From Eledone cirrhosa (lineage: Eukaryota), in NCBI GenBank assembly GCA_964016885.1, contig OZ024754.1, positions 44,640,001 through 44,704,000 of the forward strand: DNA of 64,000 bases, in the 5' to 3' direction. The notes beneath the pieces are model-generated. The model saw nothing but the letters and a program-made list of their open reading frames with translations, had not been told where the DNA came from and made no database searches. Positions 2,162 through 60,935 of this stretch are shown here, piece by piece. The stretch's first letter is position 1; the number at the start of each line of letters is the position of its first letter. The position numbers were made by a program, and so were the translations under genes.

Positions 2162-2303
2162 GGCGTCTTAACAGCTGATGAAGTTGCAGCCCTTATGTCA
2201 AACTACCAATACACGGGTGCCACTACCAATATACACCCTTATCTCTCTGCTATGGTCAACTATGCTCAACCTGTCAAGTTCCAGTCCTTTGAAATAGCAG
2301 AAG
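2162..2303 (+). CDS. PLCB4: PLC-beta4-like exon (end of X-Y linker, start of Y domain); upstream exons lie outside the window
   Basis: ttttag|GGC...GAAG|gtattt; translates [47 protein letters not shown], resembling the PLCB4 [20 protein letters not shown] motif. Confidence 0.93.
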
Positions 2304-2851: not shown

Positions 2852-3480
2852 CGCATCACCACCACCATCAACACCACCACCACCATCAACACCACCACCA
2901 CCATCAACACCACCACCACCATCAACACCACCACCACCATCACCACCACCACCACCACCACCACCATCAACACCACCACCACCACCACCATCATCACCAC
3001 CAACACCACCACCACCACCACCACCATCACCATCACCACCAACACCACCACCACCACCACCATCAACACCACCACCATCATTAACACCACCACCACCATT
3101 AACACCACCACCACCATCATCACCACCACCATCAACACCACCACCATCATCACCATCACCATCATCACCATCACCACCAACACCACCACCATCACCACCA
3201 CCAGCACCATCACCACCACCAGCATAACCATCACCACCAACACCAACACCACCACCATCACCACCACCAGCATAACCATCACCACCACCATCAACACCAC
3301 CACCACCATCACCACCACCATCACCACCATCACCATCAACACCATCACCACCATCACCATCAACACCACCAACACCATTATGAACAAAACCATCACCACC
3401 ACCAACAACACCAACACTATTATAACCACCACCAACACCACCACTATCACTACTACAACCACTACATACCACTACCATCA
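2852..3480. repeat. (CAC/CAT/CAA)n trinucleotide array
   Basis: direct reading; source of the poly-His/Gly/Val ORFs. Confidence 0.95.
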
Positions 3481-3559
3481 CTTCAGTGCCAACCCTGTTA
3501 CTATTACCATTATTCTATGACTCTTTTCTATGTCTGTCTGTGTGTCTTTTTACTTTCAG

Positions 3560-3644
3560 AGCGTAACATCCATTACCACATGTCATCGTTCAACGAGAAC
3601 GCAGGCTTAGGTTATTTAAAAACTCAGGCTATAGAATTTGTCAA
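3560..3644 (+). CDS. PLCB4: PLC-beta4 Y-domain exon, mutually exclusive variant A (85 nt)
   Basis: tttcag|AG...GTCAA|GTATCCTT; (E)[27 protein letters not shown](N); U12-type donor. Confidence 0.93.
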
Positions 3645-4400
3645 GTATCCTTGTGCAATCTAACCCATCTTCATGTTGGGCCCTGATAGGGAATTTCAAG
3701 GGATTAACCTTCTTGGTGCTGTGGGTGATTGAAGTTGCTGATAGAGTAGTCTCTCTTTAATACGTAATACAGTATCAAGGGAAGTAATTCATAAAAAGAT
3801 TCAGCCTCCAGAAGGTTAAGCAGTGTGTGGCGCTGTAGTGAAGCAGTCCCACACACAACAATGTAGCACTGTGTACCTCTGTAACCAAGCAGTGTGTGTC
3901 CATGGTAAGCAAGCAGTGTTTGCCTCTGTAACCAAGCAGTGTGTGCCACCATAATCAAGCCATAATTTCACTCCCTGTCATACTATGGGGCTCTGTTAAC
4001 TCTATGTATAATATCTATATATCATATATAGATATATACACACACACATATATATATATATACATATATATGATGATGATGATGATATATATATATATAT
4101 CTATATAAGATGCAAAGAAAATATGAGTGATATGAAAAGATTTCCTGGTGGAAGTTCAGGTAAACTCCAGGTGTAGATCCAGTTTTTCAGAGTAAAAATC
4201 CAATTTGAAAATCCAACGAATTTGATATATATATATATATGTTGTAGTAAAAGAACTGGGAGATTATAACCAAAGGTTGGTAGAGCACTCATTCGAAAGG
4301 AACGAGTTGGGTATTGTGGAACTAACTCTCTCTCTCTCTCTGTATATATAGACGGGAACTAAATTAAAGATGTCACCATCGTTCACGATGGACAACCAAG

Positions 4401-4466
<66 letters not shown>

Positions 4467-4950
4467 AAGAGTGAAGAATAACATGGTCAACAGTACAAAA
4501 AGAGTTTTATTTACAGTCTAACAATTGTTTCATTGATTAGAGTGTCTAAAAATTGCTAATTTAATGATGCACAGTTAACACATCTTGGGGAATCAATGAA
4601 TTAATCCAACTCATCAATGATCTCATTTCTAATCAAATTATCGTTAATCCTCAAATTTCCACCTCCTCCAGGGTCAGTTAATTAGTTAAGGTAATACATA
4701 TATTGACATTATGTCTAATTGAAGAAAAGAAAACTAGCACAGAACAGTCCATTATTACTGCTGTTACTATTGTTGTTATTGGTGACATTTCAATTTAATG
4801 CTAACAACTATATGTAAAGTTTTAAAATATTTGTTATTTTCTGTTTTTCTCACTTTTTGTGGTTCATCTAACTTGTGTTTCTCATCCAATGACTCTAATA
4901 TTTAAATATATTTTTTATTTCTGTTTTGATATACATTATATACACATACA

Positions 4951-4981
<31 letters not shown>

Positions 4982-5035
4982 TAGGACAATATAGATTAGT
5001 AACCCCTTGAACTGCAGCTATGGTGGGATTCCCTC

Positions 5036-5086
<51 letters not shown>

Positions 5087-5100
5087 GCAAATAGTGCTCC

Positions 5101-5134
<34 letters not shown>

Positions 5135-5146
5135 GCAAATAGTGCT

Positions 5147-5207
<61 letters not shown>

Positions 5208-5509
5208 GTGGAACACTGGAAGGTAATATCCGTAGTGGTAGAGCACTCAGTCCATGGGACGAGTTAGGTAGAAGTGGTTACACAAAAGTTAGTTCACCGT
5301 ACCGAGAACAATTGTTTCACCTTAGCGGATCTTCAGCTCAGGATGTGTATGGTTATAGGAAGAGGAAGGACAACCGTACGAACGTGCATGCGCAGAAACT
5401 CGGTCACTTCACACCCGCACGTAGTATACTATTGCCTGTGTGAAGTGACCGAGTTTCTGCGCATGCGCGTTCGTACGGTTGTCCTTCCTCTTCCTATAAC
5501 CATACACAT

Positions 5510-5550
5510 CCTAAGCTGAAGATCCGCTAAGGTGAAACAATTGTTCTCGG
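5510..5550 (+). ncRNA. minimal hammerhead motif (mirror copy on - at 5302-5342)
   Basis: CCTAAG-CTGAAGA-TCCGCTAAGGT-GAAAC-AATT-GTT-CTCGG; the minus copy has CCTGAG and a fully paired stem I. Confidence 0.6.
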
Positions 5551-5773
5551 TACGGTGAACTAACTTTTGTGTAACCACTTCTATATATCTATATATCTAT
5601 ATATATATATATATATATATATATTGAGTATGTGTTGGTTGTTTACCGACACTTCAGTGTGCAGGTTGGAGCACTCAATGCAGTACGCAGGTTGGTTTGT
5701 TTACTCCAGAGTAATGTAAAATAATATGCGTAAGTCAAACATGTTAAAGTAGGCTTCATTTATTCATATTATA

Positions 5774-5814
<41 letters not shown>

Positions 5815-6030
5815 CAGATACTCAGATAAACGATTGTCCATGAAGCTCGCAAGCCACATATGGTCACTCAAAAATGCAGATGTGGATTACTCCATTAAAT
5901 GGAAAGTTATAGTTAAATCTAGTCAATACAGAAATGGGGATTTGTCTTGTTGGCTGTGTATTGAGGAACAAATAAATATCTTGTACAATACCTGTCTAAA
6001 TACAAAATTCGATTTCTATAGTATTTATTA
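5815..6030 (+). mobile_element. Penelope-like element fragment, GIY-YIG endonuclease C-terminal region
   Basis: LASHIWSLKNADVDYSIKWKVIVKSSQYRNGDLSCWLCIEEQINILY resembles the PLE LS.hIW.LK...y.I.W.I....C.LC..EK pattern; flanked by (TA)n. Confidence 0.7.
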
Positions 6031-6180
6031 ATCTAGGTTGTTTGTCCAGGGTATATATATATATATACGTGTATATATATACGTGTATATTATCTGTGTC
6101 CATGCAATGTTCTATATAGTTTATATTTGAAGGGATGTTTGACCAGAAATAGAAACAACTTAACCACACACTGACACTCC

Positions 6181-6230
<50 letters not shown>

Positions 6231-6364
6231 TATATATGTTGTCTTTCTCTCTCTCTCTCTATCTCTATCTCACCCTCTCTCTCTATCTCACTGCATGTTG
6301 CTACCAATTTATAAGTATTTATATATTGTTTGTTGTTTTCTTCATGCTATTATTGTTGTTGTTG

Positions 6365-6409
<45 letters not shown>

Positions 6410-6751
6410 ACTTTTGGCACAAGGCCAGCAATTACCCCAGTGCATTACTGGTACTTTATTTTATCGATCCCATAAGGATGAAAGGCAAAGTTAACCTCAG
6501 CGGGATTTGAACTGAGACCAGTTGCGTCCCTTTATGGTCTGAGTTCAAATCCTGTCAATGTTAACTTTGCCTTTCATCCTTACAGGGTCAATAAAATAAA
6601 GTACCAGTAATGCACTGGGGTAATTGCTGGCCTTGTGCCAAAAGTAGAAATAATAATTATTATTATTGTTGTTGTTGTTGTTGTTGCATGAATCTTAATT
6701 TTTGGTTTGTTTTCTGTTGTTTTTTTTCTTTCTTTTGTTTTTATTTGCAAG

Positions 6752-6836
6752 CTAAAAGACTCAACTATACGATGTCTTCGTTCAACGAGAACGCTGGACT
6801 GAGTCTCATCAAACACAGCTGCTTGGATTTTGTAGA
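6752..6836 (+). CDS. PLCB4: PLC-beta4 Y-domain exon, mutually exclusive variant B (85 nt)
   Basis: long U-tract + aag|CT...GTAGA|GTATCCTT; (A)[27 protein letters not shown](D); same length, phases and U12 donor as variant A. Confidence 0.82.
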
Positions 6837-6929
6837 GTATCCTTGTTGTATTGTGCTCCTCCACCTCACTACACCACTCCTCCACCACCATACCTGTCTG
6901 TCCATCTCTCCTCCATATATATATATGGC

Positions 6930-7225
6930 TCTGAATATTAATACACTGAGGATGAAAAACTCAGAGCTGTATGGCAGCCTCCCAAAAGTCAGCTCGAAAG
7001 TGACACAGAGGGAACTGAGGTTAGCTGGACATGCTCACCAACATCCAGAGTTGACATTGCACTCAGTGCTCCTTTGGGAGCCCCTACATGGACACACTGG
7101 AAGAGGAAGACCGAGGTATAACATATGTTGATGCCCTAAGGACAGAAACTGGTCTGTTGGAGACGCAGGACATTCAGCGATAATGAGGGACAGAGGTGCT
7201 GGAGAGAACTCGTCCATGGATCTCG
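6930..7225 (+). mobile_element. RTE-like LINE 3' fragment (related copy 63262-63430, minus)
   Basis: NSELYGSLPKVSSKVTQRELRLAGHAHQHPEL...[16 protein letters not shown]. Confidence 0.8.
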
Positions 7226-7242
7226 GGAATTTTACCCGCCCT

Positions 7243-7278
<36 letters not shown>

Positions 7279-8476
7279 ACACATATGCACACACAATCTA
7301 TATCGCTCTGATCAATCAACAAGATTGCAAGCCTCATTCACTTGCTGAATGGGATGGACCTCGTCAAATTTGACCAAGGAAACAATGTTTCCATTGTCTT
7401 TCCATTGCTGATACTATCTACCGGTCACAACTCCTTGGCAAAAGGAGCAACCTGAAATAAAGTGTCTTCCTCAAGGACACAATGCATCACCCTGTCCAAG
7501 AATTGAACTCACAACCTCACGATTGCTAATCCAGCTCTGTAACCTCTCAGCCACGTACCTTTACTATATATAGTAATAGTAAATACAAAGACCAAAGTCC
7601 TCAAATTTAGGGTATCAATAATTACATTATTCAATGAGTGGTTCCTATTAAAGACTGTAGGATGAGGGAGATTTGGCTGTTGTTTCTCACAGGTCAAGGA
7701 ATCAAGTAGAACTCTGCATGTGTATAATTGTAGAATTGTAAGTGGGAGATAATATTTGAATTTCAGTAACAAATGTTAAAAAAAAGTTCAACAAACCTAC
7801 TGCATCCCCTTCCCCTCTCTCCCCCCTCTCTCCTCCTCTCACCCCTCTCTCCCCTCTCTCCCCTCTCTCCTCCTCTCACCCCCCTCTCTCCTCCTCTCAC
7901 CCCTCTCTCCTCCTCTCACACCCCTCTCCTCATCTCCCCCCTCTCTCCCCATCTCTCCCCCATCTCTCCTCCTCCCCCTCTCTCCCCCTCTCCCCCCTCT
8001 CTCCTCCTCTCCCCCCTCTCTCCTCCTCTCCCCCCTCTCTCCTCCTCTCCTCCCTCTCTCCTCCTCTCTCCTCCTCTCTCCTCCTCTCCTCCCTCCTCTC
8101 CTCCCTCTCTCCTCCTCTCCTCCTCTCACCCCTCTCTCCTCCTCTCACCTCTCTCTCCTCCTCTCACCTCTCTCTCTCTATATGTGCGTGTGTTTATAAG
8201 TGTGTATATCAGTCCTAAACAAATGAGGTCGTGTAGGTGTCACGACAAAAAAACACACAGTCCACGCTGTAATGTGGCCGTGTAGGTAACACGGTAAAAA
8301 CCTCCCAGTCCACACTGTAAATGTGGTTGGTGTTAGGAAGGGCATCCAGCTGTAGAAAACCCGCCAGACAGTCCTATGCGAGCAAGACAACCACTCTTGC
8401 CTCAAGTGGGAAAACTCCTGTCCAAACCCATGCAAGCGTGGAACATGGACGTTAAACGATGATGATGATGTATATG

Positions 8477-8511
<35 letters not shown>

Positions 8512-8538
8512 ATATATATATATATGCATGTATGTATG

Positions 8539-8576
<38 letters not shown>

Positions 8577-9530
8577 TGTATGTATGCAAATATATATATA
8601 TATATGTATATATATATGTGTGTATATATATATGCATGTATGTATGTAAATATATATGTATATATAGATGTATATATATTTATGTGTGTGTATATATATA
8701 TGTGTGTGTGTGTGTACATATATATATATATATAAAACCTGCGACTTCGACTGCATCCAATGATGTAGACCAGTTCTTCTTTTTGGGGTAAATGCATTCA
8801 ATGTTCAGAGAGTGGGATTGGCTCCGTGCAAAGCCTTTCCTCACTTAAAAAAGCTTCAAACACAGGCATCGCTTGATATGTGATATTTTTTGGCAATGTA
8901 TAGTATTGCTGGCCACAGGCAAGTCCTTAGCAGGACTAAAAAGCCACGTCTTTGATGTTCATGTTTAAGTATCAAACGATGGCATTACTCGAAATCAAGT
9001 TGCAGCCATCATATATATATATATGTATATATATATATGTAGGAGGTGAGTTTTATTGTTGTACAATAAAGCAATGCAGATATCGGATAAGAAGCACTCT
9101 ACAGTTTGTAGGACTGGAGTATACATAATATATAAGATCAAAAGATGGTTAAAGGAGTTCCATGTATTTTATTATGCGCATTTCAAAAACAAACATCATC
9201 ATGCAATAATATTTGTGTTTTCATCAGATAAAACAGGAGAACATGATATGAAGGCTAAAAAACACTTGTGGATAGTGCAGTTTTAAATCAACATATATAT
9301 ATATATAGTAATAATAATATATTTGAAAACTAAAATTAAAAATGGGCTCGATAAGGATAAATATATATCAAATATATAAGAACCGTAGAGCAAATATTTA
9401 TTAAAATAACAGATTAAAGTTTAAGCAAAGAATCGCTGCTTTCACCCTTAACGGGATCTTCTGAAACTCAGAAGATCCCGTTAAGGGTGAAAACAGCAAT
9501 TCTTTGTTTAAACTTTAATCTGTTATTTTA

Positions 9531-9568
<38 letters not shown>

Positions 9569-11176
9569 ATTTATTGGTTTGTGTAAACATTGTTGTGTAA
9601 TATTATTAGTAGTATTAGAATTGTTGTATTAATTATTGGCTTATGTGTATGATTAATGTTGTTGTTGTTGTTGTGTGTATGTAGCGAGTTATATTTACAC
9701 TGATTAACCCTTTAGCATTTAAACCGGCCATATCCGGCCAGAATTCTCTCACCTCTTTCTGTTCAAACCAGCTGTAACTGGCCACTCATACTTATGTTAA
9801 GGTATTGTTCTCAAAATAAATAATAGTTTCTACTTTTGGTACAAGGTTAACAATTATCCCAGTGTATTACTGGTACTTTATTTTATTGACCCCGTAAGGA
9901 TGAAAGGCAAAGTTAAAATCAGCGGGATTTGAACTCAGACCGTAAAGGGTCGTAACTCTATGCTGCTAAGCATGGCGTCCGACCCTCTACCGATTCAGCC
10001 AATCCACATTATAATGTAAATGCTAAAGGGTTAATGCATTATTAATATAACATACACACATACATACACACATGCATACATACACACATACATACCTGCA
10101 TACACACATACATATTTATACAGACATTTCTCGATATACATGTTCATATACACTACATTATACATACATACCTATATGTATGTATGTATAATGTAGTGTA
10201 TATAAACAACTTAATTGCTCTGCACCATTGTTTTAATGTTTTGCTTTGTTTGATTTTAAAATAAAACCTCTAAACACTGTGTGTGTGTGTGGCTTCTTTC
10301 ACCCTTCACATCAACATAATAATAATGATTTCATTTATTGGCCACAGGGGCCGACATGTAGGGGACAATACAAAGACAGGGACAGTGGAGGGGTTTACAA
10401 TAAGCTCAAGTAAAAGTGTACAATAGCAAGACCAATTTAATAATAATGATTTCTGATTTAGACACCAGGCCAAATTCTTTATTCGTAAATTAAAATATAA
10501 AATATTTCATTAGAAATACAATAAGAAAAGAGTTAATTAAATTATATTGTAGCAGAATATATTTACCATAATAGTACTATACTATACTATAGAATATATT
10601 GACCATAATAGTACTATACTATACTATAGAATATATTGACCATAATAGTACTATATTTTAAAAAAATTACATGACAATCACAGACAGTGTCTTCCATTAG
10701 AAATATGGAAATGAAAGGGTTAAAGTGTTTATATTTATCAAAAAAACCTTCAAGTATAATTTTATGTAATCTTAAGAAATTTCATGGAGTATAAAAACAT
10801 TCATTCTAACGACAAATTCTTTATAATGGTATTTGTTATAACGGAATTTTACCTGGATTACTAAATCCCTTCAAATCCTTGATTATTTTTAGAATTATTT
10901 GAAAATTATAGACAATATCTTTCTTGAAAAATATGGGAATGAAAAAGTTAAGCTGTGTTAAGAGGAACTATAATTTTTTTTTTTTTTTATTGCTCCAATA
11001 ATTGAGGGGTGGGGTGGGGGTGGGGGTATTAAGATGACAAAACAGTTAGGAAAGTTATCTTCTTTATATTAAGTATACAGTAATTATAATGTTGTTAGCA
11101 ATATTATTTCCTTCATCACTTGGTCCTCTGTCCCCAAGCTCTACACCCTAGTCCACCCCCACAATATTCGGTTTAT

Positions 11177-11196
11177 TTCCTTAACGTGTTCACCAG
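11177..11196 (+). promoter_or_regulatory. U12-type (minor spliceosome) branch site and 3' splice site
   Basis: TTCCTTAAC at 11177-11185, 11 nt before the exon start (CAG|), no long polypyrimidine tract; partners the GTATCCTT donors at 3645 and 6837. Confidence 0.9.
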
Positions 11197-11269
11197 TTAT
11201 AACAAGCGCCAAATGAGTCGTATCTACCCAAGGGGTGGAAGAGTTGATTCCAGTAACTATATGCCACAG
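11197..11269 (+). CDS. PLCB4: PLC-beta4 Y-domain exon
   Basis: [24 protein letters not shown]|gtaag; canonical [12 protein letters not shown] motif. Confidence 0.96.
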
Positions 11270-12341: not shown

Positions 12342-12533
<192 letters not shown>

Positions 12534-12602
12534 TAAGGCACTGGATCATCATCATCATCATCATCATCATCATATCCGATTTTTTATGATTATATACATG
12601 CA

Positions 12603-12637
<35 letters not shown>

Positions 12638-13000
12638 GAGGTTATATTTAATTTGTTGGGATACAACAAGCAAAATATTTTTATAACTGATATAAAACAC
12701 TCAACAAATTATTGGAGTAAATATACAATATATTAACAAATGGAAACTATATTTATAAAACCATATTTATTTCATTATACATATTTCAAGGGCCACCAAG
12801 GCAAACTATGGTGCGCTTTCATCAGATAAAATATAATATAGGTTAGTTTTATAAATAAATATTGACATACCCTTAAAAAATGCAACCATTCTGGTTGGAA
12901 TCTCCTGGATAGTGGAGTTATTAGATTTATTGTTGGTTTATTATGCAAATTAGTGTCGGAAAGGTTTAAAAACAGTATATTTAAATTAAGCCATATATTA

Positions 13001-13066
13001 TATTTTATCTGATGAAAGCGCACTATAGTTTGCCTTGGTAGACCTTGAAATATGTGTAATGAAATA
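13001..13066 (+). ncRNA. type I hammerhead motif (mirror copy on - at 12768-12833)
   Basis: TATTTTAT-CTGATGA-AAG...CTT-GAAA-TATGTGT-A-ATGAAATA; 8-bp stem I with one GU pair, GUA triplet. Confidence 0.65.
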
Positions 13067-13235
13067 AATATGGTTTTATAAATATAGTTTCCATTTGTTA
13101 ATATATTGTATATATATATATCTATATGTATGAATGTATGTATAAATTTGGTATTAGCAAAATAATTTTGATATTTAATATATTTTCTTTTTCTTTTGTG
13201 TCTTCCTGTGCACCTGTAATCACTGGTTCTGTTAG

Positions 13236-13338
13236 ATACCTGCTGAAACCTGACTTCATGAGGAGGCCAGATCGGACATTTGACCCATTTTCAGAAAGTC
13301 CTGTAGATGGAGTCATTGCTGGTCATTGTTCAGTTGAG
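13236..13338 (+). CDS. PLCB4: PLC-beta4 exon (Y end / C2 start)
   Basis: tag|[34 protein letters not shown]|gtaag. Confidence 0.95.
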
Positions 13339-13342
13339 GTAA

Positions 13343-13880
13343 GTTTACAGATGTCTTAAATAGTTTACAGATGTCTTAAATAGTTTGCAGACGTCTTGAA
13401 TAGTTAACAAACGTCTTGAATAGTTAACAAACGTCTTGAATAGTTAACAAACGTCTTGAATAGTTTCCAGACGTCTTGAATAGTTAACAGACGTCTTGAG
13501 TTGTTTACAGATGTCTTGAGTTGTTTACAGACGTCTTGAGTTGTTTACAGACGTCTTGAGTTGTTTACAGACGTCTTGAGTTGTTTACAGACGTCTTGAG
13601 TTGTTTACAGACGTCTTGAGTTGTTTACAGACGTCTTGAGTTGTTTACAGACGTCTTGAGTTGTTTACAGACGTCTTGAGTTGTTTACAGACGTCTTGAG
13701 TTGTTTACAGACGTCTTGAGTTGTTTACAGACGTCTTCAGTTGTTTACAGACGTCTTCGGTAGTTTACAGACGTCTTCAGTTGTTTACAAACGTCTTGAG
13801 TTGTTTACAGACGTCTTCAATAGTTTACAGACGTTTTGAGTTGTTTACACACGTCTGGAATAGTTAACAGACGTCTTACA
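13343..13880. repeat. 20-bp minisatellite starting at a splice donor
   Basis: TTGTTTACAGACGTCTTGAG, about 26 units. Confidence 0.95.
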
Positions 13881-13971
13881 GATTCATGACCATAGGTAAG
13901 GTTGGCACAAACATCAACTTGAAGGCAGCTCCCTGATATTTTATTATACTCAATGTTATTTATAATTTCAG

Positions 13972-14136
13972 GTTATCTCTGGTCAGTTTTTGTCTGATAA
14001 AAAAATTGGAACATGTGTTGAGGTGGATATGTATGGTCTACCAACAGATACTATTCGAAAGGAATTCCGCACCAAAGTGGTACCAAATAATGGTCTCAAC
14101 CCGATCTATAATGATGAACCATTTGTCTTCAGAAAG
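13972..14136 (+). CDS. PLCB4: PLC-beta4 C2-domain exon
   Basis: cag|[55 protein letters not shown]|gtaaa. Confidence 0.96.
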
Positions 14137-14216
14137 GTAAAACATTTTGTTTTTCTCTTTTTGCTTTGGTTTGTTTTGTTTTGCCTCAGGTATGATGATC
14201 TCTCTCTCTTGATATA

Positions 14217-14249
<33 letters not shown>

Positions 14250-14861
14250 GAGAGAGAGCGAGAGAGAGAGATATGTGAGAGTGTGTGTGTGTGATATATA
14301 TATATATATACACACACACACTTTATTAAGGCTAAACTTGAGTCTTAATAAAGAATATATTATTATTACAAAACGTCTATATATATAATATAAAACAAAA
14401 AATCAGTGATGCATCTGAACTCAATTTATTGTGTTACAATTGTTTCCCCGGCAGACAGCTTGAGATGCGATCATTGTGTGGATCTGTCTGATTCTGGACC
14501 CACATGTTCAACGGACACGTCTAATGATTTCGGAGCATATTCTCGATTTTTCATTTTCTATCCTATCATACTCTGCTCTGTAAGAGCATAGAGTGCTCAA
14601 CCGTCATACCGACTATGGAAGCATCTTAGCTACCATCAGATACATATATATATATATATCTCATCATATATATATATATATTTTTAGAGTCTCATGGATG
14701 TACTTTATTATGCCACCAGCACTATTACTTACAGGGTGTACTGGGTGCATTTATTTATGCACACACACTTACACTCACTCACACAACACACACTCATATA
14801 TTCACCTTATTTTCATTAATTAATAAATATTTATTTATTTGTTTGTTTGTTTTTTTTTCAG

Positions 14862-14961
14862 GTGGTTTTACCTGATCTAGCAGTCCTTCGGATTGCTGTG
14901 TATGAAGACACTGGCAAGCTGATTGGTCAGCGAATCCTGCCATTGGATGGATTGCAAGCTG
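14862..14961 (+). CDS. PLCB4: PLC-beta4 C2-domain exon
   Basis: cag|[33 protein letters not shown](G)|gtcagt. Confidence 0.95.
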
Positions 14962-15258
14962 GTCAGTGGTGGTTATTAAATCTTTGGCATGGGTTGGGGG
15001 GTGGGGGCAATTTGTGTGGGGGTGGGGCTGTATTGGATGGATTGCAAGCTGGACAGTGGTAGTTCTTAAATTTTTGGCATGAGAGAGGGTACAAGTGCTG
15101 AAGATCTATTTTAGTAATGTCATAATTTTAGTAAATCCTTCAAAATTCTTCATTAATTAATTGAAATAAAGTGTATCTTAAGTATTTACTCTATTTCTAG
15201 GTTAATCTGAAAAGAATTCATTAGAAAATGTTTTTTTAATTCTTTTCTCTCCATCCAG

Positions 15259-15363
15259 GCTATCGGCATATATCCCTACGAACAGAAGGAAACTTCCCCC
15301 TCTCGTTACCAACAGTTTTCTGTCGAATTATTCTAAAAACCTATGTCCCAGAAGGCTTCGAAG
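15259..15363 (+). CDS. PLCB4: PLC-beta4 exon (C2 end)
   Basis: cag|[34 protein letters not shown]|gtaag. Confidence 0.95.
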
Positions 15364-15660
15364 GTAAGTTATCATTGGCTTTTCTTTTCTCTTTTGGTAC
15401 TTTTGTTTGTTTATTTTATAGTTAGGTGGTTGGTGTTAGGTAGAGCATCCAGCCATAGAAACCTAACTAGACACAGTCCTATCTCCACCAACACACCATA
15501 CCCCTATCTCTACCAACACACCCCTATCACTATCTCCACCAACACACCCCTATCACTATCTCCACCAACACACCCCTATCACTATCTCCACCAACACACC
15601 CCTATCACTATCTCCACCAACACACCCCTATCTCTATATCTCTATTTTTTCACTTCTCAG

Positions 15661-15924
15661 ATTTTGTGTCAGCAGTATCAGCTCCAATCCAGTTCCAATC
15701 GATGGCGGACAAGAGAGAACAACTGATGCTTGGGATGGGTATTGACGAAAACGATATTGGGGACGTACCTGTGGCTAAAGAAAAAAATAAATCTACCCAG
15801 AATGAAAGTGTAAAACCAACTCCTCAAACACCAAACGGCCCTTCCAAAGACCAAGTGAAGGACATTCCTAAACAGTCAAAGCAGATGCCCGCCTCCTCAC
15901 AGCCTCCGCCTGCCAAGAAAGAGG
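15661..15924 (+). CDS. PLCB4: PLC-beta4 exon (proximal CTD and linker)
   Basis: cag|(D)FVSAVSAPIQFQSMADKREQLMLGMGIDENDIGDVP...PPPAKKE|gtacag; phases 1/1 fit neighbours. Confidence 0.9.
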
Positions 15925-16729
15925 GTACAGCTCTTCTATCATTATTTTTCTTGTATCATTTTGTTTTTGTATATTGTTTGATATTGTTTAACCCTTTACC
16001 ATTTACATTACTCTGTATTTACTATTGTATTTTCACAGTAAAGTCTTTACCTCACATAATATCTCGCATACCATTTACATTACTCTATATATACTATTGT
16101 ATTTTCACAGTAAAGGCTTTACCTCACATAATATCTCACATACCATTTACATTACTCTATATTTACTATGGTATTTTCATGGCATTACCTCACATAATAT
16201 TATCTATTTTGAAAACAATACCTTAAAATCAGTATGAGTGGCCAGTTACAGCCAGTTTGGAAAGGAATAGGTGAGGGAATTCTGGCCAGATTTGGCTGGT
16301 TTAAATGCCCAGGAAAGCAAGGCGTTCAGAGTATGGTCGATGCCTGATGGAGGATTTTCGCTTGGTTGCACAGCTCTGAACAGTTTCCAGGAGATCAATA
16401 TTCTGTATACCATCTAAACAGTGTGTTGATTAGCTACCTTGGTTTATAAACAGGGTTTGGGTTTTCACCTATTTACCAGGCATAAAATAGGGGAGGTGGC
16501 TTATATTTGTATATATACAGTAGAAGACCACGAAAAACATGGGCAGAGGTGGCGAGAGCTGATCTCAGATCGCTGAAGCTCACAGAGATGACGATGAAGG
16601 ACTGTGAAGAATGGAGAGATCTGTGCTGAATAGGACCCATCCCACCCTTGCAAGCAGAAAAAAGCGGACGTAAAATGACGATCATGACAGTAATTTTGTT
16701 AAATGTTTTACTATATCTGATATTTCCAG

Positions 16730-16958
16730 AGGAGCTTCAATTTGACAAGATAACCCGGGATAGTCTGATGCAGGAGAAGGTGTACATTCGTTTGATAAAG
16801 AAACAGCTGAGAGAGGTGGAAATAATGAAGAAGAAACACCAGAAAGAGAAGTCTGTGATGTCTAAACAACAGTGTACCTCTGTAGAGAAGATGACGACAA
16901 TTCATGAGAAGGAGAAGGCAGCCATGGAGAAGTCTTGGGAGAAATTAAAGAAGAAAAA
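16730..16958 (+). CDS. PLCB4: PLC-beta4 distal CTD exon
   Basis: cag|(E)ELQFDKITRDSLMQEKVYIRLIKKQLREVEIMKKKHQKEKSVMSKQQC...KLKKK|gtgatt. Confidence 0.9.
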
Positions 16959-16969
16959 GTGATTATTTC

Positions 16970-17350
16970 TTATTTCACTTCATTTATTTTCGTCATTTCA
17001 TTTTTTCATTTCACTTTCTTGTTTCATTTCTTCATTTCATTTCTCATTTCATTTTTCATTTCACTTTCTCATTTCATTTCTCATTTCATTTCTCATTTCA
17101 TTTTTCATTTCACTTTCTCATTTCATTTCTCATTTCATTTCACTTTCTCATTTCATTTCTCATTTCATTTTTCATTTCATTTTTTCATTTCCCTCTCTCA
17201 TTTCACTTTCTTGTTTCATTTCCTCATTTCATTTCCTCATTTCATTTCTTCAATTCACTTTTTCATTTCACTTTTTCATTTTATATTTTCATTTCATTTT
17301 TTCATTTCATTTTTTCATTTCACTTTCCTCATTTCACTTTCCTCATTTCA
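16970..17350. repeat. degenerate (TTTCA)n array
   Basis: direct reading. Confidence 0.9.
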
Positions 17351-17791
17351 CTTATCTTTCCCACCCATCATCTCCGACATCTATTTTCTATTCATATATT
17401 TTAATTTTCTGAGATTGTTTTTGTTTGTTTTACTTTTGTTGCTTATTTATTTTTATCTGTTTTTTTGACAAGTCACGTAGCTCAGTGGTTAGAGAGTTTG
17501 GTTCGCAATCGTGAGGTTGTGAGTTCAATTCTCAAACCGGGTGATGTGTTGTGTCCTTGAGCAAGACACTTTATTTCATGTTGCTCCTTCTACCTGAAGT
17601 TGCAACCAGTAGATAGTATCAGCAATGGAAAGACCAATGGAAACATTGTTTCCTTAGACTGATTTGACGAGGTCCATCCCATTCGGCAAGTGAATGAGGT
17701 CTGGGATCTTGTCGATAACAGAGGTGATCAGTGGTGAGATTTTCTCACCTGTTCTTCTCTAATTGTCCTTCTAATTTCTTTGCCATTCCAG

Positions 17792-17858
17792 CGATGATAC
17801 AAACTTAAATAGTATTGAGGATAAACTTCAAGCATTGACTGCTTCTCAAAAATCAAAG
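17792..17858 (+). CDS. PLCB4: PLC-beta4 distal CTD exon
   Basis: cag|(N)DDTNLNSIEDKLQALTASQKSK|gtaag; phase 2/0 bridges the neighbouring exons. Confidence 0.85.
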
Positions 17859-18146
17859 GTAAGAATAGCAGTGATAGGTTTGTTCCTCCTCCAGCTTATT
17901 TCCTCCTGCTCTCATACTCTCTATCTCCTCCTCCTCCTCTATCTCTCTCTTACTCCTCTCTCTCTCATTCATCTCTCTCTTACTCCTCTCTCTCTCATTC
18001 ATCTCTCTCTTACTCCTCTTTCTCACACTCTTTCCCTTTCTCTAGAAATGATGACACACACACACACACGTATACATAAATACATTCATACACACAGACA
18101 TACAGGTAAATACTTAACTTAATTAAACATGTTGAATTGTGTGCAG

Positions 18147-18322
18147 GTAAATATACTGGTGTCTGATCACACCAAGGAATGGTCAGACATGATTGCCAGA
18201 CAGTTGAAGGAGGAACATGAGCTAAACAAGTCTCATATTGTACAGCAGAACACCACAAATATTCAGTTGGTTAAGGACGTACAACAGACCCAGCTGAAGG
18301 AATTGGAATTGAAACAAGACAG
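18147..18322 (+). CDS. PLCB4: PLC-beta4 distal CTD exon
   Basis: cag|VNILVSDHTKEWSDMIARQLKEEHEL...LKELELKQD(R)|gtag; HTKEWS.M motif. Confidence 0.92.
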
Positions 18323-18353
18323 GTAGGTGATATATGATGTAGTAGAGGTTGTA

Positions 18354-18865
18354 CGAGGGCTCTTCAAAACGTTCGTGGAAAAACTACATAGCTAAAAGTC
18401 ATATGCAGGGATTTTTATCTCGATGCACCTGTATATTCTCATACTAACATGTTGTAACATGTTCTAACATGAACCCTTAAATGCATGTTGCAATGGGGTG
18501 CCACCAGTCGGAAGTCATCACCCTATCAAATTCATGGTGAAGCTAGGGTGGCAGAGCAGCCAAATCATTGACGGTCTGGAGCAAGTTTATGGAGACAATG
18601 CCCCAAAGAAATCAACAACCTACAAATGGTTGTCTTTTTAGAAGTGGAAGAGATAAGGTTGAAAATGATCCCCCATGGAAAAAAAGCTGCTATGACATGG
18701 TTTAAATCACATGGCCCTCAGTTTTACACAGATGAACTTAAAGGTTGGTATCAATGATTGCAGAAGTGATTTGACCTAGATGAAGCATATGTTGAAAAAT
18801 AAACATCATAACTTAAACCGTTTTATCCAACTCTCCTTTTTCCATGAACTTCTGAAGCCCCCTCG
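18354..18865 (+). mobile_element. internally deleted mariner (Hsmar2/irritans-like)
   Basis: TA|CGAGGG...CCCTCG|TA termini; remnants IKFMVKLGWQSSQIIDGLEQVYGDNAPKKSTTYKW and WFKSHGPQFY...LDEAYVEK*. Confidence 0.85.
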
Positions 18866-19227
18866 TATTTGTCTCTAGAATTGGAGAGGTTTGAAAAAGT
18901 TGTCCTGAACCCAGATGCTCATCAGGCTAGTACTTATCCTAGTTTCTGTGGTATGAAACAAGCAACATAGAGTACATGACTACCCCTTCCTGGACAGGAT
19001 GCATGTTCACTGCAGCTTAACCCTGCGGTGAACAGGTGTCCTGTTCAGGAGGGGAAGGGGTAGTCATGTACTTTAAGACACTTACTTCACACCCACAGAA
19101 ACTTAGATAAGTTCTGGCCCAATGACCCTTCGGTCTCAAGACAGAACTTTTCCAAACCCCTCAAATTCTAGAGATAACAAAAAATAATATTGTACCAACT
19201 TCTGACGTTTTTCTTCTGTAATTCCAG

Positions 19228-19329
19228 AGACAACAAGGAACTGAGGACTATCCAAGCCAAACAGTCAATGGAGTCTAGTAAAGCTGTGCTGAATGATAAA
19301 ACAATTAAGAACAAAGCTGAAAGAGAGAG
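19228..19329 (+). CDS. PLCB4: PLC-beta4 distal CTD exon
   Basis: cag|[33 protein letters not shown](R)|gtgag; [11 protein letters not shown] motif. Confidence 0.94.
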
Positions 19330-20055
19330 GTGAGTGACTATTGTAGTACTATGTGGTAGTGGTACCTGCACTACCACCCTACAGAGTGGACTGGGTGTTG
19401 TTTGTTGTACCTGCACTATCACCCTACAGAGTGAACTGGGTGTTGTTTGTTGTGGTACCAGCACTATCACCCAACAGAGTGGACTGGGTGTTGTTTGTTG
19501 TGGTACCAGCATTATCACCCTACAGAGTGAACTGGGTGTTGTTTGTTGTGGTACCAGCACTATCACCCAACAGTGGACTGGGTGTTTTTTGTTGTGGTAC
19601 CAGTACTATCACCTAACAGAGTGGACTGGGTGTTGTTTTTCATGGGAATGGCACTACAATCCTACAGCACATATCAGTTTTTCTCCTGCACTAGTGTCAC
19701 AATAAAATGCACCCAGTACACTCTGTAAAGTGTTTGGTGTTAGGGAATGTATCCAGCCATAGATCAGTAACTGTGAATAAGAACTGCTGTAGTAATAATA
19801 ATAATAATAATGAAATAATGAAAATTGTGTACAGTGCTCAGGAGCACTACAATTCATCAAAGGTGCATGTATAGTACATAGAATAATGTACAAATGTCAG
19901 GAAAGTGAACAGTGTATGAGTCATGATATACACACAGATACATGCGACCATGTGTATGGAAGGGGAATATCAGGTATAGTGTTGGTGAATTTATAGAAAG
20001 TGGACATAATATCATCATCATTATTAATTGTCGTTTGGTCTGTTGTGTATTTCAG

Positions 20056-20200
20056 GAGGATAAGAGAACTAAACGAGAACAACACAAAGAAATTTATTGA
20101 AGAAAGGAAACGTTTAGCTGTAAAACATTCCAGGCAGGTAGAAGCCATTAAAAAAATACATTGCCAACAAACAGAGGAATTGCTGATGGAGAATGAGAAG
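20056..20200 (+). CDS. PLCB4: PLC-beta4 distal CTD exon
   Basis: cag|RIRELNENNTKKFIEERKRLAVKHSRQVEAIKKIHCQQTEELLMENEK|gtaag. Confidence 0.94.
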
Positions 20201-21848
20201 GTAAGACACCTTAACCTGCTAATTAACATATTTCTAATGACACACCTTAACCTGCTAATTACCATATTACTAATGACACACCTTAACCCATTAATTAACA
20301 TATTACTAATGACATATTACTAATGACCTTAAAATGCTTTAATCCTTTCATTACCATATTTGACTCACCTGAACCATATTTCTAATGAGGAGGAACGATC
20401 AACAAGCTCTTAGACCACATTCTTTTACCAAGTCAGGTGGAACTCATGAAATTTGACCAAGGAAACAATGTTTCCATTAGTCTTTCCATTGCTGCTACTA
20501 TCTGCCTGTCATAACTCCTGACAGAAGAACAAAGTGAAATAAAGTATCTTGCTCAAGAACAGAACATAACATATCGCCTGGTCTGAGAACCGAACTTGCA
20601 ACCTCACAATTGCAAATCCAACTTTCTAACCACTAGGCTATGTGCCTTCACATATTTCTAATGACACATCTTAACCTTTCATTGCCATATTTATGATACA
20701 TCTTAACCTTTCATTGCCATATTACTAATGATACTTCTTAACCTTTCTTTACCATATTTCTAATGACACACATCTTAACCCTTTCATTACCTAAGGTAAG
20801 GTGCTTTAACCCTTTCGTTACCCTGTTCCTAATGAAATACACTGCCTATGTATTTCAAATAATATTGAAAATAATCAAGAGTTTGAAGGTATTTAGTAAT
20901 ATAACTAATTTTCACTTTAATTAGTGTTTAAAACATAAAGTTTCTTACATAAAATTATGATAGAAAGTTATTAAATACAAAGTTAAACATTTTGAAATAT
21001 AAAAGTTTGTATCACAGAACAGGGGTTGTATCAGGTAGTCTGGTATCAAAAATAGAAATAATTTTATATAATTCAAATATTTGAAACTGTTATTAAAAGG
21101 TTAACATCCTGTACTGCATCAAACCACATTCATTAGCAAAACATTTTTGAAAAATATAAAACTGCACTATGGCTACATCATATTATAATTTGAAGCCTTT
21201 ACTTTAATAGTGCCAATTTTTACAACCTGTATCTGTCCACAAGTAAAGATACTATAAATATTTGAATTAACAAACCTGGTTTTAGATATTTTCTACTAAA
21301 TCTTTACAGGATGTTAAGTGTAATTCTTTATAAGAATTTGTTTGGGATTAGTGATATAAGCTGGCTACATTTAGTCAAAGGTAGTGGGTTAGTAGTAATA
21401 TAATTAACCCTTTAGCATTTACAATACTCTATATTTACTGTGGTATATCTGTGGTAAAGACTTGTCTTACATAATTATCTCGCATAATATCGAATCTATG
21501 AGATTTTGATATTATTTATTTTGAGAACAATACCTTAACATCAGTATGAGTGACCAGTTATGGCCAGTTTAAATGCTAAAGGGTTAATCGACTTTCCCCA
21601 CCTACACATTTGTTGGCTTTCTGCCTAAATCAGAAATCATTGTTTTTATTTTGAGAACAATACCTCAATGTCAGTATGAGCGACCAGTTATGGCTGGTTT
21701 GAACAGAAAGAGGTGAGACAATTCTGACTGGATACAGCTGGTTAAAATGCTAAAGGGTTAATAAAGGCAACATCATTAAGCTAATTAGAAATATATAATC
21801 AATATTAGTCATTGACAAATGTTTTTTTTTTGTTTGTTTTTCTGGCAG

Positions 21849-21897
21849 ATATTGCAGACAGCTTCAAAACATATCTCAAACTAAATGTGACTCATAG
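21849..21897 (+). CDS. PLCB4: candidate alternative cassette exon (49 nt) giving a short C-terminus ILQTASKHISN*
   Basis: strong poly-U tract + cag| acceptor, CATAG|gtaatt donor, phase-0 continuation with TAA at 21882-21884. Confidence 0.55.
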
Positions 21898-22516
21898 GTA
21901 ATTTTAACCCTTTGGGGATGACGCCTACTGTTGCTTCTACGCTGAAGAAAAGAGGGCTGTTTTTATGAATTATCTATATATCATTTACATATTAACCCTT
22001 TAGTATTTACATTACTCTATATTTACTATTATATTATTATATTTTCATGATAAAGGCTTTGCCTCACATAATATCTTACATCCTTACAGGGTCGATAAAT
22101 AAAGCACCAGTAATGTACTGGGGCGATTTGATTGACTTTTCCCTCCCCTCAAATTGCTGGCCTTGTGCCTAAAGTAGAAACCATTATTATTAATATCAGT
22201 AGAGATTAAAAGTTAAAGCAATAACTTTCTGCTTTCACCCAAAGCAGGATCATCAGAGTTTCAGATGATCCCACTTTCACCCGAAGTGGGATCATCAGAG
22301 TTTCAGATGATCCCGCTAAGGTGACAATATTAGCACTCAATGCTATAGCAGAGTGTTTAAATTAAGAACAAAATGAGATTTTGGTTTTGCTTGATTAACA
22401 AGTCTGATGAGCAGATTGGGGCTGGGGTCAAATCTTTGTAGATACTGAGCCACCATCTGTGAAACAGTTGTAACTGTGCATAATTAATAAAAATCTAAAT
22501 GTAAAAGCTCATCATG

Positions 22517-22563
<47 letters not shown>

Positions 22564-23694
22564 GGATAAGTGATATAATAGGGTTTTATTACAAGCATTA
22601 ACATATGTTTCATCACTTAATGTACAATTGATTATGTCTTGAAATCAAATATACATATAGCATCATCTTCCACGCTAGCATGGGTTTGACGGTCCTATTT
22701 TAAGGCAAGTTGTGTCAGGTGACCATATCTCGCTCAAATGGCTGGTTTTCTATGGCCGGATGCCTTTCCTAATGCCAACCACATTTACAGTGTGGGCTGA
22801 GTGCTTTGCATAATGGTTTGAAGAGAAAAAATGTTTGTTAGTTTCATGAATTATCTCCCTTTAGAAGAAGTTAAATAAGGTTCGTTTTTTTGGTTTTTGA
22901 ATTAAATTTTTATTTTATTTTTCATCCCTCTAAAGTTAGTAAGATGTCAACACAGGAACCACATGCAAAAAACTCTTAAAATCTTTTTCTTCAAAAGCTA
23001 CTCTGTTCTAGTGATGCATGTTTTAGTTCCTGCTAAAGGTAACATTGATGTTTCATTAACATTCCCATTCATTTTCAAACTTTTATCATCTCTCCGAGGA
23101 AAAGGAATGTGCATGGATGACTATATATATATATACATTTACATCTGTATATAGACAAAGATTGCATGAGATATTTCCTAACACTTGGATGACTCTATAT
23201 ATATATATATATATATAACAAAGGAATTGTGGTAAGGAACCAAATGGACCATAACACACCAGAGTACTCAATAGTTAGGGTAGTAGAGTGGCAAATAGGA
23301 AAAAATATTACCCCGACGGCAGAGCTCAAGCCGTTTCGACGTCGAAACGGCTTGAGCTCTGCCGTCGGGGTAATACTTTTCCCTATATATATATATATAT
23401 TTACACCTGTATATAGACAAAGAATGTATGAGATATATCCCAACACTTCAAAAAAATGGGTTGCGTATCTCTCTCGAAACGTGTGTAAGGTGTAAGAATA
23501 AATATGGTTTTTTAATGAAAGAAGTTAATTTTTGCATTGATACTCTTGTATGTATATATTACAGTCTGAGGTTGACTTTGCCTTTCATCCTTACAGGGGT
23601 CGATAAAATAAAGTACCAGTAATGCACTGTGGTAATTGCTGGCCTTGTGCCAAAAGTAGAAACAATTATTATTATTCACTCAAGAATACATTTA

Positions 23695-23863
23695 CCATAT
23701 TTCCTGGCATCGAAGTCGCTTCGTCCTCGCGGATGCACCCTAATTTTGACAAGCAAAAATTTGGAAAAAAAATAATAAACAACCTTTGGCCTCCAGGATG
23801 CATGGCAGATGTTTTAGACTTATTTTAGGAAAAAAGTAGCGTCTTCGATGCCGAGAAATACGG
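23695..23863. mobile_element. Tc2/pogo-like MITE
   Basis: imperfect TIRs CCATATTTCCTGGCATCGAAGTCGC / GCGTCTTCGATGCCGAGAAATACGG, TA on the left. Confidence 0.65.
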
Positions 23864-24170
23864 CAGGTATCAACTACTTTAACCCTTTAGCATTTCCATT
23901 ATTCTATATTTACTATTGTATTTTCACAGTAAAGGCTTTACCTCACATAGTACCTCACATTATATCGAATCTATGAGATTTTGATATTATTTATTTTGAG
24001 AACAATACCTTAACATAAGTATACATGCCCATTTACAGCCAGTTTGAGCAGAAAGAGGTGAGAGAAATCTGGCGGGATACAGCCGGTTCAAATGCTAAAG
24101 GGTTAAGAGTGAAAAAACAAATTTTGCTTCTAATTCTATAATATATATTGTCATGTTTTTTTTATTCCAG

Positions 24171-24239
24171 GCCATGGAAGCAGTTGAAATGGTGCACCGG
24201 GAAGCAAAACTGGCCACAAAACCAGAGACTGTCGTTTGA
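24171..24239 (+). CDS. PLCB4: PLC-beta4 terminal coding exon with PDZ-binding tail
   Basis: ttccag|AMEAVEMVHREAKLATKPETVV*; vertebrate PLCB4 ends in PATVV. Confidence 0.92.
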   Translation, partial: AMEAVEMVHREAKLATKPETVV

Positions 24240-51783: not shown

Positions 51784-52098
51784 GGAGGCACATGGCTTAG
51801 TGGTTAGAGCATTGGCCTTGCAATCGAAAGGTTGTGAGTTCAATTCTCAGACTGGGTGATGTGTTGTTTCCTTGAGCAAGACACTTTATTTCATGTTGCT
51901 CCAGCTGTAGAAATGAGATGATAGGGACTGGGGTCCCTATCATTCCACTGTAAAGTGGTCGTGGAGGTGCCACGGCAAAAAAGTACCCACCACTCACTGT
52001 AAATGAGGTTGGTGTTCGGAAGGGCATCCAGCTGTAGAAATCAAGCCAGAACCAGTCCCCCCCCCCCCCTTGCAAGCAGGGAAAAAGCGGACGTAAAA
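51784..52098 (+). mobile_element. second tRNA-derived SINE family, representative copy (related copies at approx. 7320-7560, 17474-17720, 20445-20650, 58990-59312)
   Basis: A box TGGCTTAGTGG, B box GAGTTCAATTC, body TCCTTGAGCAAGACACTT, 3' end shared with the RTE-like tails in this window. Confidence 0.75.
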
Positions 52099-60276: not shown

Positions 60277-60935
60277 TATATATAAAATATATATATAAAA
60301 TATATATATAAAATATATATATAAAATATATATATATATAAAATATATATTATATATATATATATAAAATATATATTATATATATATATATCATATATAT
60401 ATATAAAATATATTTATATATATTTATATAAATATTCCCCAATTTTTTTTATTTTATTTTAAAATAGTAGGTTAAACTATTTTAGTCCGAGGTTGTCAAC
60501 CTCACCCCCCCCCCCCTGCTCTATTTCTTTCTCTGTCTCTTATCATGACAATCTTACCTCTTTCTCCACTACCCTCCCTCTCTCTCCACTACCCCTCTCT
60601 CTCTCTCTCTGCTACCCTCTCTCTGTAGCCCTCTCTCACCACTACACTCTCTCTCCACTACCCCTCTCTCTCTGTACCTCTCTCTCTGTACCCCTCTCTC
60701 ACCACTACTGTCTTCCTCTAACCACTACCCCACTCTCTCCACTACCCTCCCTTTCTCTACTACCCCCTCACCACTACCCCTCTCACCACTCCCTATCTCT
60801 CCACTAGATGTCCCCCTTCTATCTAACTCTTACTCTTACATTTAATTCCAATCAATTTTTATTTCCCAATACTTTATTGATCTCCTAACTTCACAACAGC
60901 AAGGAATTTCTTGTTTCCCAACAACTTCACATATT

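Follow-up and report, generated by a model that had tools for sequence, protein, structure and literature searches.

Tandem 85-nt catalytic-domain exons of a mollusc PLCB4 gene, used singly in transcripts and probably held apart by a U12-donor/U2-acceptor intron

Two tandem 85-nt exon copies in the catalytic domain of PLCB4 appear singly in transcripts of molluscs. The intron between them, which combines a U12 donor with a U2 acceptor, probably prevents their inclusion together. The window, that is, the whole 64-kb stretch of Eledone cirrhosa DNA that was analysed, contains only the Y-to-CTD exons of the gene. The closest named proteins are PLCB4-like proteins of Octopus (98% over the upstream exon), and the protein architecture is PH-EF-X-Y-C2-CTD, with Pfam domains X, Y, C2, EF, and PH.

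Organization of the locus

All features described here lie on the forward strand. The common upstream exon (2162..2303), with which the PLC Y region starts, ends in phase 1 and is followed by the U2-type donor GTATTTCT, which differs from the U12 donor. Exon A (3560..3644), the copy with the ancestral-type sequence, is preceded by an acceptor with a pyrimidine tract (3515..3559) and followed by the U12-type donor GTATCCTT (3645..3652); exon B (6752..6836), the derived copy, likewise has a pyrimidine-tract acceptor (6690..6751) and the U12-type donor GTATCCTT (6837..6844). Both acceptors are of the U2 type, without a U12 branch site. The exons are 85 nt each, entered in phase 1 and left in phase 2, and are identical at 46 of 85 DNA positions; their coordinates and translations in the preliminary description proved right. 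The intron between them (3645..6751) is thus a hybrid, with a U12 donor and a U2-type acceptor, predicted by analogy with JNK2 to remain unspliced as a unit. A U12 branch site, TCCTTAAC (11178..11185), ends 11 nt before the acceptor of the common downstream exon (11197..11269, 73 nt), which has the U2 donor GTAAGT. The JNK-type architecture that had been proposed, with two U2-type acceptors, two GTATCCTT donors, and one U12 branch site, is therefore present in the window. The remaining PLCB4 coding exons, about 12, covering the rest of the Y region, C2, and the C-terminal domain, were placed at 12369..24236 by tblastn of P0001, with approximate boundaries. The Rfam search of the window yielded only a weak tRNA-like match at 51791-51854.

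Splice sites

We take GTATCCTT and TCCTTAAC to be the textbook U12 consensus motifs, and the U12 and U2 calls given here are mismatch counts against one motif rather than the output of a trained classifier such as intronIC. The donor 8-mer occurs twice in the window, both strands counted, with a per-site chance of about 2e-5 from base composition; the exon A donor, moreover, scores poorly as a U2 donor.

The U12 class is defined by the donor together with the branch site (PMC3584512). An exact TCCTTAAC is found at 11178 only, where it serves the downstream exon. The earlier statement that this is the sole properly placed U12 branch site holds for exact matches and requires a refinement, as four branch-like 8-mers with one mismatch (3078, 8213, 8924, 9445) lie between 2304 and 11190, none of them at the A acceptor, at the B acceptor, or within the A–B intron. 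Within -8..-40, the best match to TCCTTAAC has 2.5 mismatches at acceptor A and 4 at acceptor B, to be compared with 1-4 mismatches at 13 control acceptors of the same gene, two of them approximate in position (12 out of 13 score 2.5-4). Pyrimidines make up 0.80 (acceptor A) and 0.85 (acceptor B) of the 20 nt upstream of the final 3 nt. No U12 branch site was found at the exon B acceptor in the window or in two further loci described below, L007 and L044.

Use of the exons in transcripts and proteins

In relatives, mature transcripts contain either exon by itself. In organism A, a related species, spliced reads join the upstream exon to exon B (three in X16 and three in X18) and exon B to the downstream exon (four in X16); these reads thus represent a relative of the Eledone species and were matched against exon B. 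Read depth is low, with 2-4 reads per 1.7-1.9 Gb. The left junction, from the upstream exon to B, is visible in six out of nine exon-B reads, the other three having no listed left end and one row of loose ends being missing from the listing. No A-to-B end is listed among the nine reads, six of them informative, junctions with fewer than three reads being unlisted. A contig from X9 (organism B, run type not recorded) covers exon B fully and runs on into the downstream exon. The preliminary description had looked to the presence of exon-B reads in any tissue, and to how often A and B are co-included, as decisive for whether mRNA contains exon B; such reads were found, and frequent co-inclusion was not, on very few reads.

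The proteins agree with single use. Exactly one exon copy is present in 271 out of 273 proteins spanning the region, and both copies are present in one, P0167, which is a partial prediction containing an intron-like linker. Among A/B protein pairs from database clusters, 25 out of 27 are identical outside the exon, and the other two differ at 4-5 sites. As the exons lie in tandem in one locus and the pairs are identical elsewhere, we rejected the reading that A and B are alleles or belong to separate genes. Full-length A-type and B-type Logan proteins are encoded on contigs of 4-4.8 kb, a length suggestive of spliced transcripts.

Sequence of the exons and the protein region

Exon A resembles the single exon found in PLCB4/norpA/egl-8 of fish, chelicerates (spiders and mites), and nematodes, and aligns to residues 610-638 of human PLCβ3. 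Exon B evolves faster, with a mean identity of 53% vs 86% for exon A; six of its residues are nevertheless invariant, and the exon B cysteine is present in 16 out of 16 mollusc B exons compared. The isoforms had been described as differing next to the SSF serine; differences do exist, mainly in the segment that follows, and the serine and its core are themselves invariant in both exons. We take the segment after the catalytic core to be the region that earlier work tied to regulation by G-protein βγ. Since the core is shared and the later segment differs, the isoforms are predicted to differ in how they are regulated, with the same chemistry.

Folding P0123 from its sequence alone gave an unusable model (mean pLDDT 36.5), and in a 60-sequence fold residues 578-711, the exon included, have pLDDT <50; residue mapping is taken from PDB alignments, and no structural claim uses either predicted fold. 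PDB searches with the 27-aa exon peptides gave no match.

Distribution across animals

Proteins of both the A and B types occur in cephalopods, gastropods, and bivalves, lineages that diverged in the Cambrian, and exon B retains an intact frame and splice sites, so that its expected conservation in related species was borne out. Another mollusc, represented by a bivalve-like contig (L007), matches this layout, with the U2 donor followed by A and B, each with its GTATCCTT donor, and has six YCAY motifs 3' of exon B. A probable annelid locus, from outside the molluscs (L044), has three exon copies with three U12 donors and a branch site. Genomic read-through ORFs of the B exon in other molluscs go on with Y-P, the residues expected from a GTATCC donor, the query itself having ended in Y-P and thus being biased towards such matches; the exon-B frame search yielded two proteins among seven candidates.

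An exact GTATCCTT follows 63 out of 68 exon copies with a following intron in 79 metagenome loci, which are dominated by related clitellate-like samples and hence are not independent. The same exon of a paralogue in the Eledone genome, L083, is likewise followed by an exact GTATCCTT, and one copy of it was found (three candidates scored). The mouse Plcb4 genomic sequence carries the same U12 branch site (PMC9066496). Single-exon clitellate-like loci have perfect U12 donors and branch sites 1-3 mismatches from the motif, so that pairing of a U12 donor with a less than perfect acceptor may be possible. Judging from these sequences, the U12 intron after the exon is probably ancestral in PLCβ.

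Only one exon type was seen in the cluster members examined from fish, chelicerates, and nematodes. A search for B-type sequences in annelids with a Chaetopterus region returned, besides the query, ecdysozoan and flatworm A-like sequences only. In the FastTree gene tree used to place L044, the root is arbitrary and a partial Paralvinella protein is misplaced among molluscs.

Proposed mechanism and alternative explanations

By analogy with JNK2, the upstream exon would be joined to A or B by the major spliceosome, and A or B to the downstream exon by the minor spliceosome, so that joining A to B, or the upstream to the downstream exon, would require a mismatched donor/acceptor pair. The length of 85 nt is not a multiple of three, and the earlier expectation that inclusion of both exons or neither shifts the frame is confirmed by translation: joint inclusion of A and B leads to an immediate stop at the junction, and skipping both exons also leads to an immediate stop. 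Thus, nonsense-mediated decay (NMD) would remove leak products of both kinds.

The pair may have arisen by tandem duplication of the acceptor, exon, and donor before the split of cephalopods, gastropods, and bivalves. If the U12 intron after the exon was ancestral, duplicating the exon together with its donor would give a JNK/TMEM87-type lock automatically, that is, at once; copy A would then have stayed ancestral and copy B diverged. Such a lock would not pick the exon; a splicing regulator would have to, and one possible candidate is Nova, acting via a YCAY-rich stretch behind exon B (6837..6936, eight motifs per 100 nt), a possible Nova-type site that we offer as a lead only.

The strongest competing explanation, which we nevertheless consider unlikely, is that exclusivity is mainly due to ordinary splicing regulators with frameshift and NMD, the U12 donors being merely inherited and the hybrid intron appreciably spliced. 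Indeed, frameshift and NMD alone could hide A+B products of these 85-nt exons, and among human mutually exclusive exon (MXE) clusters 377 are frame-incompatible vs five U2/U12-incompatible, according to one survey (PMC5740500). The donors must stay U12 anyway to reach the U12 acceptor, and hence their conservation is no sign of selection for the lock; moreover, human cells do splice annotated hybrid introns, 129 of which have mapped branch points (PMC11347168). However, the equivalent hybrid intron of JNK2 has been described as not being properly spliced (PMC1874599), and here the poor U2 score of the A donor, the B acceptors without a U12 branch site in all three loci, and the nine exon-B reads without a listed A-to-B end count against this explanation.

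Dscam-type control by a docking site and selectors is known for many invertebrate MXE clusters. Competing RNA secondary structures of this kind, which the three-copy array of L044 resembles, could force an exclusive choice here as well, but we consider this highly improbable: in 12 out of 12 comparisons (window, L007, and L044; 15 shuffles each, flanks only), the best pairing between flanks of 300 nt stayed within roughly 2 SD of shuffles. That exon B survives only as a silent relic or a pseudo-exon, as its faster evolution and low read depth might suggest, is hardly credible and was rejected: spliced reads contain it, its frame and splice sites are intact, six of its residues are invariant, and B-type proteins occur in three classes of molluscs.

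A broader scenario is possible, although doubtful: the duplication may be older than the divergence of molluscs and annelids; exon B, whose invariant cysteine lies on the Gβγ-linked segment, may make a neural, Nova-switched, differently regulated PLCβ4; and an ancient minor intron may make alternatives of the copies whenever the preceding exon is duplicated, the three-copy array of L044 being an example.

Comparison with known systems

The closest parallel is provided by exons 6a/6b of the vertebrate JNK genes (MAPK8/9/10), in which a pair of tandem alternative exons, each with a U2 acceptor and a U12 donor, is separated by a hybrid intron and followed by one U12 acceptor. JNK belongs to another gene family and phylum, whereas the present pair lies in the PLCβ4 catalytic domain of molluscs, and a three-copy array is known here, in the non-mollusc L044. 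For JNK2, the tissue pattern and Nova control have been shown (PMC1874599; PMC8329584). Exons 11/11a of Tmem87a/b are similarly mutually exclusive exons of equal length at a minor intron, and no reads joining the two are reported (PMC6717393; PMC8329584). These mammalian exons differ in being 72 nt long and in frame, and thus have no NMD back-up, unlike the frameshifting 85-nt exons of PLCβ4.

Within the PLCβ family, the gene matched by the cephalopod PLC-beta structures 3qr0/3qr1 is L083, a paralogue with the same 85-nt exon and the same U12 donor; it is a different gene of the same genome, with one exon copy found. We assume that 3qr0/3qr1 represent PLC21, of retinal source. The link to phototransduction suggested earlier thus found no evidence, and we rejected this role as the default. 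Kim et al. in 1995 reportedly described a mutually exclusive exon in the N-terminal region of Drosophila norpA, which is a different exon from the mollusc A/B pair.

Significance

Our literature search found no description of the A/B exon pair in a PLC gene, and the A/B isoforms exist as automated database models. Pairs interlocked by U2/U12 incompatibility are rare, accounting for five out of 629 human MXE clusters in PMC5740500; the main text of that survey has no match to "PLC," although a human PLC gene could be among its five cases, which are shown in Appendix Fig S18. A 2021 review names JNK and TMEM87 as interlocked cases (PMC8329584). The PLCβ4 pair would add to the few genes for which a U2/U12 lock has been described so far. 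It falls within the catalytic domain of an enzyme central to Gq signalling and has been retained in three classes of molluscs. Work on molluscan PLCβ4 (Aplysia, oyster, octopus) would therefore concern two enzymes, for which databases list only automated isoform models. More generally, the pair provides a natural experiment on whether the duplication of mutually exclusive exons is promoted by minor introns.

Splice sites of the PLCβ4 exon pair

A PLCβ4-like gene has its 3′ half in the first 24 kb of the window (G000:C14:44640001-44704000, part of a 3.0-Gb genome), the closest named protein being Octopus PLCB4-like, with 98% identity across the upstream exon (2162-2303); in the remainder, only microsatellite ORFs were seen. 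Exons A (3560-3644) and B (6752-6836), both on the plus strand and 85 nt long, have the coordinates and common phases claimed in the preliminary description, and their DNA is identical at 46/85 positions. When the exon B frame was compared with its own genome, three candidates scored, namely, B, A, and one exon of the C2 paralogue. The splice sites are also of the claimed types: the acceptors of A and B are pyrimidine-rich and, at 2.5 and 4 mismatches, have no U12 branch motif, the U12-type donor GTATCCTT lies directly 3′ of both exons, with no further occurrence of this 8-mer in the window, the donor of the upstream exon is non-U12, and the expected U12 branch site, exact TCCTTAAC, ends 11 nt 5′ of the common downstream exon (11197-11269).

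Close 5′ of exon A lies a CAC/CAT repeat of about 600 nt (2860-3480), which amounts to a dense array of YCAY motifs; the genome has many repeats of this sort, among them one at 60840-61640. Long near-perfect inverted repeats, seen by eye at 5280-5580 in the hybrid intron (3645-6751) and at 9405-9510 in the next intron, are probably MITE-like or assembly-related. The acceptor at 18110-18147 has a pyrimidine content of only 0.45 and a U12-like branch motif with one mismatch, ending 28 nt upstream, and its partner donor appears to be U2-type. A weak tRNA-like Rfam match (51791-51854, 29.9 bits), with microsatellites alongside, is probably a tRNA-derived SINE.

Use of the exons in transcripts and proteins

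Raw RNA reads of a related species, mapped to exon B at 85% likeness, yielded nine reads on this exon from three runs. The left loose end is the end of the upstream exon in six of them (three each from runs X16 and X18), and four X16 reads run from exon B into the downstream exon, contradicting the possibility, considered earlier, that no reads include exon B. No A-derived left end was reported for the nine reads; as ends are reported when seen in at least three reads, the other three are uninformative on the left side. A 1272-nt contig from a run of another organism (X9) fully matches exon B, followed by the downstream exon.

The prediction of two Y-domain isoforms is borne out by A- and B-type proteins in cephalopods, gastropods, and bivalves. 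Database clusters contain both isoforms from Octopus and one Logan cephalopod lineage; Patella, Haliotis, Gigantopelta, Pomacea, Aplysia, and Biomphalaria; Mytilus, scallops, Crassostrea, Ostrea, and Mya. Both types also exist in Dreissena and in Elysia, but in the latter in different species. In 25 out of 27 hand-selected pairs, the isoforms are identical outside the exon. Among 273 proteins spanning the region, the majority of which are automated models, 271 have a single exon copy, the remaining two being a fish gene model with zero copies and a partial snail gene prediction, in which A is followed by an intron-like linker and then by B. Full-length Logan proteins on 4–4.8-kb contigs are more direct transcript evidence than automated models.

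Mechanism and exon choice

At the sequence level, the PLCβ4 A/B pair has the features of the JNK/TMEM87 kind. U2-type splicing would join the upstream exon to A or B, and U12-type splicing would join A or B to the downstream exon; joining A to B, or the upstream exon to the downstream one, would require mismatched site pairs and would likely be blocked, by analogy with the hybrid intron of JNK2, described as not spliced properly (PMC1874599). The claim that inclusion of both exons or of neither breaks the frame holds in translation, with a stop at the junction for A+B and after six codons upon skipping, and since both give early stops, NMD would clear such leak products. An absolute lock is disfavored by the report that hybrid introns do get spliced in human cells (PMC11347168) and by U12 donors paired with imperfect branch sites in single-exon loci.

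The spliceosome lock would have no power to choose between A and B. A screen of 300-nt flanks for docking/selector duplexes gave none clearly above shuffled controls. The YCAY motif, its enrichment noticed post hoc, occurs in 100 nt behind exon B eight times in the window (reached by 5.5% of windows) and six times in L007, a bivalve-like mollusc locus (reached by 0.9% of windows), and behind exon A twice in both. Since one out of 30 single-exon control loci reaches ten, at least nine are present behind two of the window's 13 other, approximately placed donors, and the third exon copy of L044, a three-copy locus, has one, Nova control via YCAY behind B may be considered only a lead.

Exon layout in other animals

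A scan of metagenomes, in which the best 80 of 84 relatives were kept, yielded 79 loci. In L007, the upstream exon with donor GTAAGT is followed by A and then B, with GTATCCTT behind each, and its exon B clusters with bivalve B exons; exon B is neither disrupted nor absent in this relative. Exon A of L007 (2395-2485) is 91 nt long, with two extra residues, and scallop exon B is longer by five residues (P0190, P0193), the frame class being unchanged in both. In oyster-, Pomacea-, Elysia-, bivalve-, and cephalopod-type sequences, genomic ORFs that read through exon B go on with Y-P, towards which the query was biased.

Locus L044 (10005-13274) contains three 85-nt PLCβ4 exon copies in tandem, all of them having an AG acceptor and the donor GTATCCTT, preceding one downstream exon, from which the branch motif TCCTTGAC ends only 7 nt away. 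In the gene tree (704 columns, the alternative exon removed), L044 lies outside the mollusc clade (support 0.995), adjoining Lamellibrachia and Chaetopterus at a weak 0.52, and is therefore probably from an annelid. Where clitellate-like loci cover both neighbours, they have one exon copy, in two paralogous genes. In L077 (792-2214), the only exon found behind the upstream one is divergent, B-leaning, and has a U12 donor, the contig ending right after it.

Divergence and position in the protein

Comparison of 27 internal residues in 15 taxa shows mean identity of 86% for A–A, 53% for B–B, and 48% for A–B pairs. M-S-S-F and the next E are invariant in both exons. The position of PLCβ3 Pro633 is occupied by Cys in 16/16 B copies (scallops, having an insertion, left out) and by Ala in 14/15 A copies. 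The B exons of molluscs group together (UFBoot 79) with the Chaetopterus cDNA exon among them, and are joined by the third L044 copy and L077 at 93; this grouping may be due to attraction (27 residues, long branches), and the similarity scores of Chaetopterus and of all three L044 copies are closer to A than to B, so pre-molluscan origin of the duplication is only possible.

The exon aligns with PLCβ3 610-638 and PLCβ2 chain 2fju_B 562-590, and it presumably encodes the very helix to which a Gβγ site was formerly mapped. That site, once placed on a Y-subdomain helix, appeared incompatible with membrane engagement (PMC13626650), and among the human isoforms PLCB4 shows the lowest sensitivity to Gβγ (PMC9066496).

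Origin of the U12 intron

Among 82 exon copies of the 79 loci, many of which come from related animals, 63 are followed by exact GTATCCTT, four by a near match, and one by a different donor, and 14 have no intron behind. The same 85-nt exon with the same U12 donor is found in the genome's own paralogous PLC-beta gene (L083, G000:C2:188746711-188746809), which matches cephalopod structures PDB 3qr0/3qr1. Given these shared donors, the branch site before the equivalent acceptor in the genomic sequence of mouse Plcb4 (PMC9066496), and the finding that 60% of PLC genes contain minor introns (PMC6865273), the U12 intron is older than the exon duplication. A tandem copy of acceptor, exon, and donor would thus have created the hybrid intron at once, no further change being needed.

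In 14 loci (L025, L030, L032, L043, L045, L046, L068, L072, L074-L076, and L078-L080), the U12 intron that once followed the exon has been lost, and most of those in the tree group with arthropods. Of the two PLCβ4 paralogues of clitellate-like type, one (L020, L033-L037, L039-L041, most of L047-L061, and similar loci) combines a perfect U12 donor with a degenerate branch site (two to three mismatches). The Y-V read-through of protein P0382 and donor GTATTTGA of L062 are possible U12-to-U2 conversions.

In agreement with the remark in the preliminary description that its author knew of no account of such an arrangement in a PLC gene, a full-text literature search, with most subscription journals outside its coverage, found no paper on this exon pair. 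The type of mechanism is already known; no earlier description seems to exist of its occurrence in this gene, of its conservation across the phylum, or of the relative with three copies. The A/B pair itself is real, conserved, and expressed.
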